From: an uncultured delta proteobacterium
GTDB taxonomy: Bacteria > Desulfobacterota > Binatia > UBA9968
Assembly (NCBI GenBank): GCA_963767275.1
Contig: CAVYDL010000005.1
Span: forward strand, 401,533 to 465,532
Reading direction: 5' to 3'
Length of the DNA stretch: 64,000 bases
This document shows, piece after piece, positions 9,752-33,946 of the stretch. The stretch's first letter is position 1, and each line of letters begins with the position of its first letter. The position numbers and the translations under genes are program-made. Below the pieces are notes generated by a model. The model had not been told where the DNA came from, did not search any database, and saw only the letters and a program-made list of their open reading frames with translations.

Positions 9752-10714
9752 TCAATAATATTTCTTCAGATCCATTCCTTTGTACAAGCTTGCGACTTGC
9801 TCGCCGTAGCCGTTGAACATCAAGGTTTTGCGCCGGCGGAATTCGCCGATCCGCCGTTCGCTTGCCTGGGTCCAGCGCGGATGGTCGACTTCGGGATTGA
9901 CGTTGGAGTAAAAGCCATACTCCTGCGGCTGCATGATGTTCCAGGAGGCCGCCGGCTGTTTCTCGACGAAGCGAACCTTGACGATCGACTTGATGCTTTT
10001 GAAACCGTACTTCCACGGTACGACGAGACGGATGGGCGCGCCGTTTTGCGCCGGCAGGACTTCGCCGTAAAGACCCACGGAAAGAATCGTCAGCGGATGC
10101 AGCGCTTCATCCATGCGCAACCCTTCGACATAAGGCCATTCCAACGTCGGCAGCTTTTGTCCCGGCAGCCGCTTGGGGTCGTTGAGGGTGACGAACTGAA
10201 TGAACTTGGCGTTGCCGGTGGGTTCGGCGAGCTTGATCAATGCGCTCAGTGGAAAGCCGATCCACGGGATTACCATGGACCAGGCTTCGACGCAGCGCAG
10301 CCGATAAATCCGCTCTTCCAACGGTGCCAACTTGATCAGCTCCTCGATGTCGTAGGTCTTGGCTTTTTTGACTTCGCCTTCCACAGCGACCGACCATGGA
10401 CGGGTGGTTAGATATTTGGCATTCTCCGCCGGATCCTCTTTGTCGGGGCCGAGTTCGTAGAAATTATTGTAGCTGGTGATCTCCTTCAGCGTGTTGAGCT
10501 TTTCATTGGTGCTGAAATTACTTTTCTTGACGTTGGCGAGTTTCTCGGCGCCATAGGCGATGCTCGATTCTGTGGCCAGCTCCAAGCCGCCAAGCATGGC
10601 GCCGCTGCTGAGCGCCAGGGCCGTTGCCGAAACCATGAACTGGCGGCGGTTCAGGTAGTGCTCTTTAGGGGTGATCTCCCCTGTTTTGATATCGGCTGGC
10701 TTCTTGATGAGCAT
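9752..10714 (-). CDS. msrP: protein-methionine-sulfoxide reductase catalytic subunit MsrP (YedY), molybdopterin
   Basis: Tat signal [12 protein letters not shown]; YedY-type sulfite-oxidase-fold motifs; strong RBS GGAGGAG before the ATG at 10714. Confidence 0.85.
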
Positions 10715-23403: not shown

Positions 23404-24381
23404 TTAAGGACGAAGCTTCCTGCGGAAGTTTTCGTAGAGATCATCGAATATCGCAGTGGCACGCGCAAGCCGCGCGTCGTCATCTCTATGTGCCATAGCG
23501 ATTCCGTCGATCAGTCGGGCTATGCCTATAGTTTCTTCCCGTTCAAACTTCGAGTCTTTCAGGTCGATGTCGTGGACAATTTCGGCGATCCTAACGAGGC
23601 CAGGATCACGAATCCCCGTTCGCATCATTAATACTTCCATTGAACAGCAGTCGTTCTCATGTGTGAACTCCGCCTCAAACATATCGAATCGGATTTCATC
23701 GTGTAGCGGCGTGTATCCTTTGGCGGGAACGAACTTGATGCGAGCTTCAGGATCGATGAAGCGCCGGACTACCCAGGCGGTAGCCATTCGATCGACATGG
23801 ATACCCGTTCGGGTTACCCAAGTCTTACCTCGTAAATCATTAATGTTTGTTTTGCCCTCGGATGTCGGGCCAGCTTTATTGTCGCGCAAGCGCGCCTCGA
23901 TGCCGGAGAGCAGCCCAGTTGCCGCCTCACGGCCGGGCGCGCCAAAGAAATCGATGGCAACCGCTTCATCCAGGTGGCGCTTTAGTCGCGCGAGGTCGAG
24001 TTCAAGCTGCGGCCGATTCTTTTTACCGAGCTTCCCTTGGGGACTGACAGTCTTGGCTATCCGGCGCGCACCCTCGGCGATCTGGTCGTAATCGGCCGTG
24101 CGAGATACTTGGAACAGTGCTTCGACTTCATCATCGTTAATCCCATCAACCAACCGCGCCTCACACAGCGTGCCGTCTCCGCCACCTTCGACGATCTCGC
24201 GCAATACCCATTGGAAGTCTTCTTGCGACTGATCGCTTTTAGGGAGGACGTATACGGAATTTTTGATAGCTACCGCGCCGAGCCGTTGCAGGCGGCGCCA
24301 AATTTTGACGCGTAGGTAACTCGGCTTTGGCGGGATCTGGTGAATCAATAATAACCAGCGGATGTCGTCGGATTCTTTCAT
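23404..24381 (-). CDS. chrB: chromate resistance protein ChrB
   Basis: N-terminal WLLLIHQIPPKPSYLRVKIWRRLQRLGAV...VYVLP; divergent from chrA. Confidence 0.8.
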   Translation of the reverse strand: MKESDDIRWLLLIHQIPPKPSYLRVKIWRRLQRLGAVAIKNSVYVLPKSDQSQEDFQWVLREIVEGGGDGTLCEARLVDGINDDEVEALFQVSRTADYDQIAEGARRIAKTVSPQGKLGKKNRPQLELDLARLKRHLDEAVAIDFFGAPGREAATGLLSGIEARLRDNKAGPTSEGKTNINDLRGKTWVTRTGIHVDRMATAWVVRRFIDPEARIKFVPAKGYTPLHDEIRFDMFEAEFTHENDCCSMEVLMMRTGIRDPGLVRIAEIVHDIDLKDSKFEREETIGIARLIDGIAMAHRDDDARLARATAIFDDLYENFRRKLRP

Positions 24382-25740: not shown

Positions 25741-26868
25741 ATGTCTCACGGAAAGAGAAACTCTATGGCACACGATGTCTGCGAACGCATTGCAGTTGTC
25801 TACCCTGGTGATTATGCGGAAAGAACGAAGGCAACAGCCGAAAATAACCGGTTCATAGACTTGTTCGGAGCCTTTGCCGCCCAAGGGATACATGCGGTAC
25901 CGGCGGTTTACCGTGATGATTTTAGCGCGGAAGTTCACGCTCAACTGATGCGCGTAGACGCCGTTCTCGTCTGGGTCAATCCTATTCAGGACGGGCGCAA
26001 TCGGTCTGTTCTCGATGCCATGCTTCGCGAGGTGGCCACTGCAGGAATTTTTGTCAGCGCGCATCCCGACATCATCCTGAAGCTGGGCACGAAGGAAATT
26101 CTATACCGAACGCGCAATATGGGGTGGGGGAGTGAGACTTATCTCTATAACAGCATGGAACAAGTGCGTCAGGAATTGCCCGCTCGCTTGGCAATCGGAA
26201 AAGCCCGCGTACTCAAACAATACCGCGGTAACGGCGGATCTGGCGTTTGGAAAGTGCAATTGCCGATGGGCGACTTTACGAGCGCTGAACAAGGTAGTGT
26301 CGGGCCTTTGCAGGCTGAAACGATCGTTCGCGTCCGCCATGCACAACGCGGCTGCAGTGAAGAAGAGATCATGTTAGGCGAATTCTTTGCACGATGTGAG
26401 GAATATTTTCTCGCGGACGGCCGGATGATTGACCAGGCGTATCAAGAACGGCTCCCCGACGGCATGATTCGCTGTTATCTCGTGCAGGAAAAGGTGGTCG
26501 GATTTGGCCACCAGGCTATCAACGCATTATTCCCCGCGCCTTCCGGCGCAGCGCCGACAGACGCCCCCCAACCTGGACCCCGCTTATACCATCCGCCCAC
26601 CAAGCCGGAATTCCAGGCTCTGAAACAGAAGTTAGAGCATGAGTGGTTACCGGCGCTGCAGCAGCTACTTGAAATCAACACCGAGAGCCTTCCCATTCTT
26701 TGGGATTGCGATTTTCTCCTCGGGCCGAAGGACGAATCCGGCGAAGACAGGTATGTGCTTTGCGAAATCAACGTCAGCAGTGTTGCGCCGTATCCTGAAT
26801 CTGCGGTGCACTACATCGTTGATGCGACGGTGGCTCGGGTACAATCGACGAGACAGAGACGCGTTTGA
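25741..26868 (+). CDS. ATP-grasp domain protein (RimK-like ligase fold), function unknown
   Basis: Motif VLKQYRGNGGSGVWKV and C-terminal LCEINVSSV resemble ATP-grasp signatures; 10 nt downstream of chrA. Confidence 0.45.
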   Translation: MSHGKRNSMAHDVCERIAVVYPGDYAERTKATAENNRFIDLFGAFAAQGIHAVPAVYRDDFSAEVHAQLMRVDAVLVWVNPIQDGRNRSVLDAMLREVATAGIFVSAHPDIILKLGTKEILYRTRNMGWGSETYLYNSMEQVRQELPARLAIGKARVLKQYRGNGGSGVWKVQLPMGDFTSAEQGSVGPLQAETIVRVRHAQRGCSEEEIMLGEFFARCEEYFLADGRMIDQAYQERLPDGMIRCYLVQEKVVGFGHQAINALFPAPSGAAPTDAPQPGPRLYHPPTKPEFQALKQKLEHEWLPALQQLLEINTESLPILWDCDFLLGPKDESGEDRYVLCEINVSSVAPYPESAVHYIVDATVARVQSTRQRRV

Positions 26869-27521
26869 ATGTCTAAAACCTCCGGGCAGGATATCGCTTC
26901 AAACGCGGCCTTCTCTTGGGCGCATTGATCGCCGTGTATCCGAGAAGATCAAAAGGATGGTGATTACTTGGTTGAAACGGTTTGCTAATTAACCAGACGC
27001 GAGCGCCGTCACTTTGGGCTCGGCGCCTTAAGGGTTTCATTGCTGCAATTTCGTCATCGCGCGCCTTGGCCTGTTGACGCGGTTGCGCAACACCTTTGTC
27101 TGTTCGTCGGCTATGACCATGCGGCCTGTTGCACCGGGCGCCTCGGTCTTGTACCGGACCGCAATATTCATGTCTCCGCTCGCCATGGATTGCACAGTTA
27201 TCGACTCAACCGATGGCTAAGTCTTTCCACTGTTAATCGGTGCTTCACTTCCGGCCCTCCCCGGTTTTTGTAGCTTTTAATTCGCGTTGATCGCGCAAAT
27301 CAATCTTACCCGGCTATAAGGTTTTACGAAGTCTCCGGGCGCGCATGCCCAATTTTCACCGGCATTTTAGGAGCCGCACTCACTATTCTGTGGCACACAT
27401 GCTGCGTTGACTTTCTTTAGTCAGCGCCCGGAGTTAGCTCGTCGTAAGTTCATCAACTTTTGGTTTTGGAGTCGGCATTCGCCGTGTATTAGTTAACAGC
27501 GAAAATGGAGTTATTATCACG

Positions 27522-28019
27522 ATGCAAGCCTGGTATGTCATTTATACAAAAGCGCAGAAGGAAGAGCTCGCGCAATTCCATTTGAAATTGAAGAATCTCG
27601 AATCGGTTTTTCCCAGACTCTTGCTACCGCTATTTTCGCGTAAGCAAAAGCGAATTGTTCCGCTATTCCCCAACTATCTTTTTGTTCGGATTGATTTCGA
27701 GAAAGAGTATGACTTTGTGCGTTGGTCGCCCGGTGTGAAGTGTTTCGTTAGTTTCAATGACAGGCCGCATCCTTTGGAAGACGGTGTGGTCGAATATCTT
27801 TTGGATCGGGCGGATAAGAACGGGATCATTGCCGCGCGGCCTAACCTAAAAAAAGGCCAAGAGGTACGAATTTGCGGTGGTCCTCTGGCTGGGCTAGATG
27901 GAATTATTCAAAATCCTCCTGATGCAAAAGGGCGAGTGACAGTGCTATTGAGCCTTTTTAACCGCAACGTCGAAGCAGGGGCGCGGTTAGAGCACATCGA
28001 GAGTAGTTGGCTGAAATAA
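27522..28019 (+). CDS. NusG-paralog transcription antiterminator (UpxY/LoaP/RfaH-like)
   Basis: NGN domain WYVIYTKAQKEELA...YLFV; KOW motif GQEVRICGGPLAGLDGII. Confidence 0.7.
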   Translation: MQAWYVIYTKAQKEELAQFHLKLKNLESVFPRLLLPLFSRKQKRIVPLFPNYLFVRIDFEKEYDFVRWSPGVKCFVSFNDRPHPLEDGVVEYLLDRADKNGIIAARPNLKKGQEVRICGGPLAGLDGIIQNPPDAKGRVTVLLSLFNRNVEAGARLEHIESSWLK

Positions 28020-28176
28020 GCTTTCTAAGTAGGTTTGTCGTTACCGGCGGCGTTTCTTTCGGGCTCGGCACCGTTTTATAAAGTTAAATAGACTAAATAT
28101 GCGACAAAAAACTGACAGGATAATGCCAAAGATACCCGCTACGAATCCTCAAAAATTCATCGGCGGACGCTAGCGT

Positions 28177-28365
28177 CTACGGATTGAGCGCAATGTCGTC
28201 TACATATCCGCACTCTGTGCATCGCGCTCGGAGACAGTCCTTCCAGACCGAAGGATCAAGCGGTGTAGTATTGGGTATTAACTTCATCACACCATTGCCG
28301 CACTTCGGACACGTACTATTTGGTTTGACCATATCGTCACACCTTTCTTGTTCGTGAATTTGCAT
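28177..28365 (-). CDS. zinc-ribbon small protein
   Basis: CPKCG...CTECG, two CxxC pairs. Confidence 0.45.
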   Translation of the reverse strand: MQIHEQERCDDMVKPNSTCPKCGNGVMKLIPNTTPLDPSVWKDCLRARCTECGYVDDIALNP

Positions 28366-28604
28366 GCGAAACGATGGCGTAATCAGGCATGCACGAGCCC
28401 TAGTCCCATTTACCGACTATGTCAAAGCCAATATCGGATGGGGTGTAGGCTCGACGCCCCCATTTGTTTCTGTACAGAAATGGGTGGGAGAGGTTGAAGG
28501 CGAACCGCCCAATTTATGATTTCTAAGTTGTGGGACGAGATTCGGATCGTTGCGTGGACGCGATGCTGCTTGGGGACGAAGCAAAAGCAGGAGGGCTATT
28601 CTGA

Positions 28605-28859
28605 CTAAAGGTCACCTAGCAAGCCGGCGTCTCTGAGCCCTTGACGGATCCGTTTTATTGCCTCGGGGCAATGCTCTCTGGCGATGGATAATAATTGGAA
28701 TGCATGATCTTCGTTGCAATGAATAGCGTTGGTAGGCCAACCGGTAGATTGAAGTTGGGATCCGGAGTTGAGCAGCATTATTCCGAGTGCGGAGCTGCGC
28801 TCAATGTGCCTGAGAAAACAGTCTACATCGGCTGAGGAAAGCTCAATGATAATCTCCAT
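28605..28859 (-). CDS. hypothetical protein
   Basis: 84 aa ORF in the island. Confidence 0.3.
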   Translation of the reverse strand: MEIIIELSSADVDCFLRHIERSSALGIMLLNSGSQLQSTGWPTNAIHCNEDHAFQLLSIAREHCPEAIKRIRQGLRDAGLLGDL

Positions 28860-29263
28860 CGTGCTGCCTCCGCGGCGCCCAAGATCATAGGGGCCACTCC
28901 GATATTAAGTATTAGTAGTTTCTGTGAGTTATCGCTGTCAGATAACAGACAACGTTCGTTTTTACCGATGTCAGGTCCGTGATGGATGGCTGCTCGCCGA
29001 ACGGAAACATCGTGACGCCGCGATCTTCGAGAGCCCAGGGGGGCGTGACGTTTTTCGGCTTGGCGGCCCGCCTTTTGATATTTCTCCGCTAGGGAAACAA
29101 CTGGCGCCAAAATTGGAATCTTTTGAGTTTATCTTTGTGCGGTAATAGTCCCATTAGGGTGAAACTATTTCATACTGTCCGGCCCATGGGACGAACGGCA
29201 ATCCTAGACAGGTTAATTCCCCATCACATTTTCGCGCATGGCGGATGCGCTCGCTCGAACCGT

Positions 29264-30322
29264 TCAGCGCGGCGGCAGCGGCCCGGCCCCGTTGATCTTT
29301 TTGAACAGATCGATGATTTCCGGGTCGCGCGGCAAATCTTTCACCAGCTTTTCCATCTCTTCCGGCAATATCGGCGTCGGTTCTTCGCCGACCATTTTTT
29401 TGTATTCCTTGTGAAACTCCGGGTCGTTGAAAGTTTTGCTAAAAGCTTGGCGCAGAACTTTTAACTGCTCGACGGAAGTTCCCGGCGGCAGAATATAGGG
29501 CGAGCCGACTTGCCTGAAGGCGCGAACCATTGACGTCAATCGCCGTTCGCGCGCCGTCTTGGCAAATTCATCGATCTCGGGCAGACGGTCGAAGCCGGAT
29601 TGTTTTAGTCCGCGCGGAACCTCCATGATCGCGTGAATGTCGATCATGCCTTTGGCGAGCATATCGGCGTTGCGCCGCACCAGAGTATCGGGATTGTTTA
29701 CGCGGCCGTCGATTTCTCCTCTGGCTAGAGCGATGTCTTGCTCATTTCCTGAATAGCCAACCAGCATTTTCGGCTCTTTGATGCCTATCAGCCAGGCAAA
29801 CAGGCGGCCGACGAAATAATTGGAATGGCCCACGGCCTGGGCGCCGATGCGTATGCCGGGCGCTTGGCGCAGCGCTTCCAAGGTGCCGAAGCCGGCGTCG
29901 CGGCGGGTGATAAAAACCCAGTGGTAGGTGCTGTGGGCGGAGCCCAGATAAATCAGTTTGTCGAGATCGTAAAGGACGCCGGCTTCTTTCAACGCGGCAT
30001 TGGCGACCAGGCCGCCGCCGATGCGGCCGATGGTGAGCCCGTCAGGTTTGGTGTTATGAAAGATATGGTTGGCGGCCTTGGTGCCGCCGCCTCCGGGCAT
30101 ATATTGGTATGCGATGGTCGGCTCGCCGGGAATATGCTTTCTCAAGACCGGGATCGTCGCCCGGACCATCGTATCGGAGGTGTCCCCGGGATCGGAGGAC
30201 TGAAGGATCGTCAGAGTCTTCCCCTGATAGAATGGCGCCTGCGACAGTGCGGGGAACGGCCACCACAGGCTTAGCAACGCTACCAGCATCAATCGTCGGA
30301 AGTCATAATTCGTTGGGAGCAT
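29264..30322 (-). CDS. Bug family (TctC-like) tripartite tricarboxylate transporter substrate-binding protein
   Basis: Signal peptide; Bug-family length; motifs PGGGGT, GYSGNEQD. Confidence 0.8.
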   Translation of the reverse strand: MLPTNYDFRRLMLVALLSLWWPFPALSQAPFYQGKTLTILQSSDPGDTSDTMVRATIPVLRKHIPGEPTIAYQYMPGGGGTKAANHIFHNTKPDGLTIGRIGGGLVANAALKEAGVLYDLDKLIYLGSAHSTYHWVFITRRDAGFGTLEALRQAPGIRIGAQAVGHSNYFVGRLFAWLIGIKEPKMLVGYSGNEQDIALARGEIDGRVNNPDTLVRRNADMLAKGMIDIHAIMEVPRGLKQSGFDRLPEIDEFAKTARERRLTSMVRAFRQVGSPYILPPGTSVEQLKVLRQAFSKTFNDPEFHKEYKKMVGEEPTPILPEEMEKLVKDLPRDPEIIDLFKKINGAGPLPPR

Positions 30323-31044: not shown

Positions 31045-31160
31045 CAAGCCGTTTGTACTGCGCGATTCTGCTAGCTACTTCTTCGCCGCGATCGGCACTC
31101 CGGGCAGCTTGGTTTTCTCGTCGTAATACTCTTGAGAAAATTCCGGGGTTTGCGCCGTGC
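31045..31160. repeat. Direct repeat copy A; contains a 3' fragment of an enoyl-CoA hydratase gene
   Basis: About 115 nt, roughly 95% identical to 33836..33946; minus strand encodes PEFSQEYYDEKTKLPGVPIAAKK*; preceded by a perfect 16-bp-stem hairpin at 31021-31057. Confidence 0.85.
31076..31150 (-). pseudogene. enoyl-CoA hydratase 3'-terminal gene remnant (about 24 codons)
   Basis: Identical C-terminal peptide to the intact gene at 33865..34707, with no upstream reading frame. Confidence 0.7.
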
Positions 31161-33835: not shown

Positions 33836-33946
33836 CAAGCCGTTTGCACTCGCGATTCCGCTAGCTACTTCTTGGCCGCGATCGGCACTCCGGGCAGCTT
33901 GGTTTTCTCGTCGTAATACTCTTGAGAAAATTCCGGTTTGCGCCGT
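33836..33946. repeat. Direct repeat copy B (3' end of the intact enoyl-CoA hydratase gene)
   Basis: Matches 31045..31160; preceded by a hairpin ggcttgaacgat...atcgttcaagcc of the GTTCAA family. Confidence 0.85.

Follow-up and report, generated by a model that had tools for sequence, protein, structure and literature searches.

What does an antiterminator gene do when no operon follows it? This question is raised by a 64,000-nucleotide stretch of contig CAVYDL010000005.1 from an uncultured delta proteobacterium (Binatia), here called the window, with positions counted from its first letter. It carries a gene for an RfaH-like specialised NusG paralog (Table 1). Capsules, toxins, conjugation and antibiotic clusters are under the control of specialised NusG paralogs. 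A previous sequence-only reading of this locus described an orphan NusG-type open reading frame (ORF) with NGN and KOW domains, preceded by a 650-bp leader and followed by small ORFs on the opposite strand, and this description is correct. Our comparison with related loci (cited below by L numbers) makes it fairly probable that the gene arose as a duplicate of a cis-encoded antiterminator and acts in trans in the style of RfaH, its product loading at ops-like element(s) of distant exopolysaccharide (EPS) operons.

The encoded protein contains an NGN domain (approximately residues 3-91), detected with the Pfam NusG/NGN model at E=1e-15 (58.5 bits, cut-off 22.2), and a KOW-like C-terminal domain (approximately residues 106-160), whose score of 20.5 bits against Pfam KOW is slightly below the 22.3 cut-off. 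Residues 1-153 of E. coli RfaH align with its residues 1-153, end to end. When NCBIfam models were ranked, RfaH came first (96 bits), followed by LoaP (57), UpxY (54.4) and housekeeping NusG (52.2). None of the curated cut-offs was reached (TIGR01955 for RfaH, 144.5; NF033641 for LoaP, 125; NF033644 for UpxY, 100; TIGR00922 for NusG, 135.7), and a second RfaH model, NF006534, gave 84.6 bits with a cut-off of 124. RfaH was also the top match in a sequence search of the PDB and in a Foldseek search with the AlphaFold model, and the closed, autoinhibited form of RfaH was the best structural match of the AlphaFold2 (AF2) model, with a template modelling (TM) score of 0.70-0.72. All 19 invariant columns of a 50-sequence family alignment are kept in the window protein, and no frameshift or premature stop was found when the gene was checked against this alignment. 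As judged from its sequence, the protein is an RfaH-like specialised paralog; it is not an RfaH equivalog, is unlike UpxY and is not a housekeeping NusG. Regulators of this kind are known, and the gene itself is an ordinary one among them. The earlier label, NusG/UpxY-like, was right about a specialised paralog and wrong about UpxY (RfaH 96 versus UpxY 54 bits). An intact ORF and a protein other than housekeeping NusG, on which that reading depends, agree with the retained invariant residues and with the low NusG score, the RfaH model being the best.

A protein search returned 351 relatives, the nearest of which were annotated as Candidatus Binatia; the window protein has 52-95% identity to 350 relatives. 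They form a large family found mostly in Candidatus Binatia metagenome-assembled genomes (MAGs), several of which encode two or three paralogs, and this family is undescribed. In the large majority of relatives, gene neighborhoods and tblastn searches with EPS proteins revealed same-strand 3' neighbors coding for a Wza-type exporter, an AAA ATPase and Wzz/tyrosine-kinase proteins. The NCBIfam names for these neighbors, with scores below equivalog cut-offs, were XrtA/PEP-CTERM-type EPS export protein, associated ATPase, chain-length determinant and autokinase. A sigma-54 promoter, TGGCAY-N5-TTGCW, was located 50-96 nt 5' of the conserved Trp4 codon in approximately 50 loci, which is nearly every member, and in 0 of 25 distant RfaH-like control loci. 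The usual order is the sigma-54 promoter, the nusG paralog, a hairpin with an ops-like element, and the XrtA/PEP-CTERM-type EPS export/biosynthesis operon. The promoter (45-110 nt 5' of the Trp4 codon), the hairpin with the element (consensus GGCGGAGCTAT) and the EPS operon occurred together in 41 of 62 non-redundant family loci.

The ops-like element lies downstream of most paralogs. On the coding strand, usually 43-66 nt past the stop codon, GGCGGAGCTA with at most one mismatch was present in 49 of 59 loci, compared with approximately 0.6 expected. An alignment of 52 such elements showed an invariant GCGGAGC, with the flanking G, the next T and the T at position 11 near-invariant. The family element, GGCGGAGCTaT (GGCGGAGCTAT) followed by R, has the length and the consensus-pause layout of E. 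coli ops, GGCGGTAGCGT followed by G, and can fold into a mini-hairpin of 2 bp around a GGA loop. A further hairpin of 5-7 bp ends 3-5 nt 5' of the core. It folds at -3 kcal/mol or better in 44 of the 52 sequences, with a mean folding energy of -5.6 kcal/mol versus -2.5 kcal/mol in shuffles, and five of its six pairs show compensatory (double) changes. The observed covariation was reached by 0 of 500 shuffles, with the count made on a model-fitted alignment, which biases it somewhat; RNAalifold on the ungapped alignment missed this hairpin owing to register shifts. A covariance model of hairpin plus element found 59 matches in 1.36 Mb of family loci. The element was absent from Rfam and from the literature searched, and an Rfam search of the loci of nine relatives returned nothing but one tRNA. 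Its position, invariance and resemblance to ops make it a candidate recruitment site for this family. In E. coli, the ops hairpin has a GGTA loop, and its flipped-out T6 enters a pocket formed by H20, R23, Q24 and R73 of RfaH (PMC5995543). The joint loss of T6 from the family element and replacement of three of these pocket residues in the window protein is suggestive.

The window copy lacks all three features: its canonical promoter is mutated, and neither an ops-like element nor an EPS gene was found in the 64 kb. The covariance model had no match in the window at E<=10, and the best score with the position weight matrix of the element was 12.7 bits, compared with a family minimum of 16.8; this hit, at 28785 (+), falls inside a minus-strand ORF and was taken as a chance match. 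Tblastn with 16 EPS proteins from L001-L003 gave only E>0.1 across the 64 kb, which covers genes as well as remnants. No same-strand operon follows the gene. The only ORFs in the region 28020-29263 are one of 62 aa, zinc-ribbon-like, and one of 84 aa; both are on the minus strand, as is the 352-aa gene that comes next. On the other side, the neighbor is a Cj0069/DUF6815 family gene that ends at 26868. ORFs inside the leader are short (40-117 aa) and without family match, and on conspecific contigs gene callers placed at most a 44-54 aa minus-strand ORF there. The wider neighborhood consists of chromate-resistance and metabolic genes; it is neither a polyketide/antibiotic cluster nor the secE-nusG-rplK context. 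Four further loci (L030, L032, L044, L057) are likewise negative for all three features, so unlinked members arose more than once.

These searches also bear on two earlier proposals. That no operon lies downstream is borne out, as the gene has no same-strand genes behind it and the window is devoid of EPS genes. The suggestion that the leader may hold the recruitment element is not: the E. coli ops sequence GGCGGTAGnnTG, allowing one mismatch, had two matches in the window (3.6 expected) and zero in the leader, the family element was unmatched, and in the family this element usually lies downstream of the gene. Rfam gave nothing at gathering thresholds over the 64 kb and nothing at E<=1 over 26800-29300. 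One leader sequence, GCCCGGAGTTAGC (27424-27438), was considered as a relic of the ops-like element and rejected, because its alignment to L091 is too poor for homology.

A linked copy was found in a closely related strain. Three large contigs that share the upstream genes of the window encode a protein identical to that of the window. One of these, ena:ERZ25039516:contig_213 (2,354,978 bp), is 99.0-99.7% identical to the window and encodes the exact protein at approximately 1.84 Mb (L005). At approximately 0.05 Mb of the same contig (L091 = 42,904-63,401), and thus about 1.8 Mb from the unlinked copy, lies a paralog, P0256, with 86% identity to the window protein. Directly 3' of P0256 are genes for Poly_export/SLBB (Wza), an AAA_22/DUF8082 PEP-CTERM ATPase and a HAMP protein, together with chain-length and kinase-like genes, and the operon continues with polysaccharide deacetylase, PHP, ATP-grasp and sulfatase genes. 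A sigma-54 promoter, TGGCATTTGAATTGCG, lies at position 9581 of L091, 420 nt 5' of the P0256 start codon, and an ops-like element (9867-9906, 27.2 bits) is located between the promoter and P0256. This layout is repeated in L092, which comes from sample ERZ25039511, also the source of the unlinked copy on L006. At this sister locus (L091 9581-10650, L092 2584-3650), a module of terminator-like T-run, hairpin and ops-like element precedes the paralog, and a degenerate copy of the module follows it, before wza. The arrangement looks as if gene and module had been duplicated in tandem and one of the two genes had then been lost or relocated, and such a duplication could be the origin of the window copy.

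The segment of the window that is homologous to the sister copy includes little more than the gene (Table 1). With L092, blastn similarity covered 27447-28014. Similarity to the sister copy ends at the stop codon, that to L001 at 28031 and that to L007 at 28046. In a neighbor-joining tree, the unlinked clade (window and L007), the sister L091 and the linked L001/L008/L011 formed a near-trichotomy, and the number of synonymous substitutions per site (dS) of 0.46-0.67 indicates that the duplication is old; from the unlinked lineage to any linked copy, dS is about 0.5-0.6. The ratio of nonsynonymous to synonymous rates (dN/dS) was 0.106 between the window gene and L007, both unlinked, 0.114 between the window gene and the sister, and 0.07-0.24 among linked copies; the unlinked lineage is under purifying selection. 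At least four diverged contigs, whose flanks differ, carry the unlinked type: L094 also has the DUF6815 neighbor, in L007 a SRAP gene precedes the paralog and a ligase-like ORF follows it, and the downstream genes of L093 are different again. The window protein and its sister do not differ in residues 1-31 and 63-80, which span the positions with which RfaH reads ops. Clade-specific substitutions (D95, K99, Q130, V141, N147, K165) are concentrated in the linker and the C-terminal domain. Together with the selection data, the identity of these surfaces, which are predicted to read DNA, favors a gene that is maintained and functional and whose product would read the signal of its sister.

Only the proximal ~210 nt of the leader (27310-27521) are kept in the more distant unlinked copy L007, and L093 and L094, which are 95% identical, lack 27200-27280. 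Operon-linked relatives also have long leaders, with approximately 380 nt strongly conserved among themselves, which are unrelated to that of the window. A family-wide scan found an intact sigma-54 motif at the equivalent of position 27473 in approximately 50 loci, where the window has a degraded version. Another sigma-54-type motif, 82 nt further upstream, is kept in all four unlinked copies (window, L007, L093 and L094), with the sole substitution, in L007, falling in the spacer. This motif, at 27391, is a candidate replacement promoter only. It overlaps a weak hairpin, and a terminator scan called 27389-27406 terminator-like. The window contains 17 similar sigma-54-like matches on both strands, and a search with one mismatch does not single out 27391. 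A sigma-70 promoter scan found no plus-strand site 5' of the window gene.

Table 1. Positions of the features of the window that are discussed in the text
Feature	Position	Strand	Remarks
Intergenic leader	26869..27521	+	653 bp
Candidate replacement sigma-54-type promoter TGGCACacatgCTGCG	27391..27406	+	GG/GC intact, 9/11 consensus positions; 116 nt before ATG
Segment homologous to sister copy	27439..28014	+	L091 9920-10493, 83.9% (blastn); gene plus 83 nt upstream
Degraded canonical sigma-54 promoter	27473..27488	+	Reads CGGCATtcgccGTGTA versus TGGCATttaccTTGCT in relatives; -12 GC lost
RfaH-like specialised NusG paralog gene	27522..28019	+	165 aa, ATG start; ORF listing
Weak terminator-like hairpin (TGTCGTTACCGGCGGCG, then TTTCTTTCGG)	28036..28061	+	17 nt past stop codon
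Strain-variable junction	28509..28512		Megablast/blastn of window versus L004, L006 and L093

The trans-acting role proposed above would work as follows. Of the duplicated locus, the window copy retains nothing but the gene and ~83 nt in front of it, without the ops-like element and without the operon. The protein would be produced from its own monocistronic unit and would load in trans on RNA polymerase paused at ops-like element(s) elsewhere in the genome, the first target being the element in front of the sister copy and its EPS operon, ~1.8 Mb away. Once loaded, it would suppress pausing and termination along this long operon, and the outcome would be a second, separately regulated input to EPS expression. 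In this scheme the window gene is presumed to be expressed and its product to use the ops-like element. RfaH, which is monocistronic, unlinked and trans-acting, provides a precedent (PMC7593976). The sequence-only reading had left two options, that the target operon was lost or that the protein acts in trans. The second fits best, and talk of loss is misleading given that the sister with a full EPS operon is present on the contig of a 99%-identical strain and that the lineage is old and under purifying selection.

Loss in a narrower sense would mean that an EPS operon with this gene at its head formerly stood at this very place and was deleted, with too little time since then for the gene to decay. 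Similarity to linked copies that ends exactly at the stop codon, the strain-variable junction 0.5 kb downstream, the decayed canonical promoter and IS21 fragments flanking related loci would all be consistent with such a history. However, a dN/dS of ~0.11 over a dS of 0.2-0.6 points to long-acting selection, the gene is intact on at least four diverged contigs that differ in their flanks, zero EPS gene remnants were found in the window, and what is taken as the same genome still has a linked sister together with its operon. We regard a recent remnant as distinctly unlikely. A different possibility concerns the mode of recruitment: the protein might have the same trans role but be recruited through RNA, in the manner of LoaP, rather than through the non-template DNA strand. 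The covarying hairpin 3-5 nt 5' of the core argues for a folded single strand, and a LoaP-type NusG-RNA complex in the PDB (8f5g) matches the window protein; yet the invariant, non-covarying core GGCGGAGCT and the conserved T at +11 mirror the ops DNA hairpin and the consensus pause, and the upstream hairpin could equally be a pause-stabilising RNA hairpin. Recruitment by RNA appears unlikely to us. It could also be imagined that the unlinked copy binds RNA polymerase or the element without promoting elongation and thereby antagonises its sister, similar to the UpxZ-type cross-inhibition in Bacteroides capsule loci. The N-terminal segments that face DNA and RNA polymerase are identical in the two proteins and the substitutions concentrate in the linker and the C-terminal (effector) domain, as such a competitor would show; but this role is pure inference without precedent among NusG paralogs, and the C-terminal domain retains the family-invariant G124, R138 and R148. 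We consider it quite improbable.

Several observations weigh against the trans-acting, RfaH-like interpretation. Three of the five RfaH residues that contact ops are changed in the window protein (R23L, Q24K, R73P), with K10 and H20 kept. E48 of the autoinhibition interface falls in an alignment gap and is absent from the protein; two other autoinhibition residues, I93 and F130, align to V and I. In the AF2 model, the C-terminal domain is a mixture of strands with a single helix (135-145) and has a predicted local distance difference test (pLDDT) score of 31-63. This low confidence leaves unproven both RfaH-like autoinhibition, the basis of specificity in trans, and a switch of this domain between alpha and beta folds. 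The candidate promoter TGGCACacatgCTGCG has two consensus mismatches, and a match of this quality would arise at random in 260 nt with a probability of ~0.03. The GGCGGAGCTAT element could be read as RNA, as with LoaP, or bound by another factor. Finally, the sister locus attributed to the genome of the window rests on a contig of a 99%-identical strain, and the scan for ops-like elements of that genome covers 64 kb plus 20 kb. A broader interpretation, in which a cis-to-trans transition has been captured with a linked antiterminator and its stand-alone descendant in one genome, identical DNA-reading surfaces, an undescribed signal (covarying hairpin plus GGCGGAGCTAT, an ops variant without a flipped-out T6) and sigma-54-dependent expression, is offered tentatively, as a possibility that we would neither dismiss nor quite favor.

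Other features were observed downstream of the window gene. The weak terminator-like hairpin sits where the closest operon-linked orthologs carry a strong intrinsic terminator. As a family-wide rule, a terminator 3' of the gene was rejected, as it was found in 12 of 61 loci and in the closest clade only (L001, L008-L011). In L001 (10538-10585), L008 (4681-4730) and L011, a strong terminator (TTTCCGAAGCATACGCTTCGGAAG plus T-runs) is placed between the antiterminator gene and the ops-like element, and transcription must cross it before reaching the presumed loading site, which a simple model leaves unexplained. The 62-aa ORF (28177-28365, minus strand) has two CxxC pairs and weak Pfam/NCBIfam matches and was uncalled by gene callers on related contigs; the 84-aa ORF (28605-28859, minus strand) was called and is without family match. 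The strain-variable junction lies between these two ORFs, approximately 490 nt 3' of the gene. At this point, L004 contains a 1.1-kb insertion with a 254-aa ORF lacking a family match, L006 a 6.7-kb insertion with PAS and GGDEF genes, and L093 unrelated sequence with small ORFs. A near-repeat of 14 nt, with copies at 28017 (TAAGCTTTCTAAGT) and 28515 (TATGATTTCTAAGT), encloses the 0.5 kb 3' of the gene and may be due to chance.

Farther away, 86-nt direct repeats (31061-31146 and 33851-33936, 98% identical) enclose a segment of 2.7 kb with genes for a flotillin/Band_7 protein of 520 aa and an NfeD-like protein of 198 aa. This segment is absent from the otherwise 99%-identical L004 and L005, which indicates a strain-level insertion or deletion between the repeats. 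A ChrB gene (23404-24381, minus strand) is whole in the window (325 aa) and broken into 2-3 ORFs on L004-L006; these splits on three conspecific long-read contigs are probably an assembly frameshift error rather than biology. No tRNA genes were found in the window.

Further observations concern other family members. In L035, L036 and L057, a response-regulator gene and rfaE/hldE (heptose-7-phosphate kinase; TIGR02198 at 368 bits in L036) replace the Wza and ATPase genes 3' of the paralog, and these members may be linked to lipopolysaccharide-core or heptose synthesis. The ops-like element is kept in L035 and absent from L036 and L057. The paralog in L002 (10001-10501) looks chimeric: its first ~120 codons have 82-84% DNA identity to the window/L008 group and its C-terminal domain matches the L003/L012 group, a pattern that suggests recombination among paralogs. 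Fragments of IS21-family insertion sequences (IstB and a weak transposase match) adjoin nusG-paralog genes in L003 (10827-11096) and L001 (8888-9397), a hint that mobile elements have a part in the rearrangement of such loci.

Among known systems, E. coli RfaH (TIGR01955; PDB 2OUG, 5OND, 8PFG) is the closest parallel. Both proteins have ~160 residues, an NGN and a KOW-like domain, an end-to-end alignment and conserved K10 and H20, and both genes are monocistronic and away from their presumed targets. The ops site and the family element, each a known or presumed recruitment site, share GGCGG.....T followed by G or R and a possible 2-bp mini-hairpin. However, identity to RfaH is only ~25-30%, the T6-pocket residues R23, Q24 and R73 are replaced, and E48 and the HTT motif are absent from the window protein. 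The family element has a 3-nt GGA loop, no T6 and a covarying hairpin in front, and the family genes, unlike rfaH, have sigma-54 promoters and are mostly cis-encoded at the head of an operon. UpxY of the Bacteroides capsular polysaccharide operons resembles most family members, including the sister, in being the first gene of its operon and in having several paralogs per genome, whereas the window copy is outside an operon, no upxZ-like partner was seen, and the phylum and promoter type differ. LoaP and Myxococcus TaA are, like the family, cis-encoded specialised paralogs that promote read-through of long operons, and for LoaP a leader hairpin is part of recognition, as may be compared with the family hairpin; their targets are polyketide clusters rather than EPS operons, and the window copy is unlinked. 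Shewanella 'CL7' RfaH-like genes are found within putative exopolysaccharide operons (PMC7593976), as in the family. We recovered these loci as distant relatives with Wza-like genes 1-2 kb downstream, but their identity is just 32-34%, and they have neither a sigma-54 motif nor a GGCGGAGCTAT element.

The PEP-CTERM/exosortase EPS regulon is under PrsK/PrsR sigma-54 control and has long intergenic regions with sigma-54 sites (Haft 2006, PMC1569441). Like this regulon, the family loci combine export, ATPase, chain-length and kinase genes with sigma-54 sites, with family matches below equivalog cut-offs, and the sigma-54 promoters of the family fit both the control and the long intergenic regions of these systems. 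That report mentions no NusG- or RfaH-like component. Recruitment signals of specialised NusG paralogs other than RfaH are largely unknown (PMC7593976). The family described here gives a strong, testable candidate for such a signal, with an ops-like invariant core and a covarying hairpin at approximately 50 independent loci, and its members, from an uncultivated phylum, show a consistent association with sigma-54 promoters and with EPS operons of the PEP-CTERM type. For annotation, the lesson is that an 'orphan' NusG paralog need not mean a lost operon. Linked and unlinked copies in one genome make a useful natural experiment on how RfaH-like trans regulators evolve from operon-resident ones. 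If the cis-to-trans interpretation is true, this family would offer a natural test of the origin of RfaH-type trans regulators from UpxY/LoaP-type cis regulators, and of the co-evolution of ops specificity with the residues of the NGN pocket, in which R23, Q24 and R73 have been replaced.

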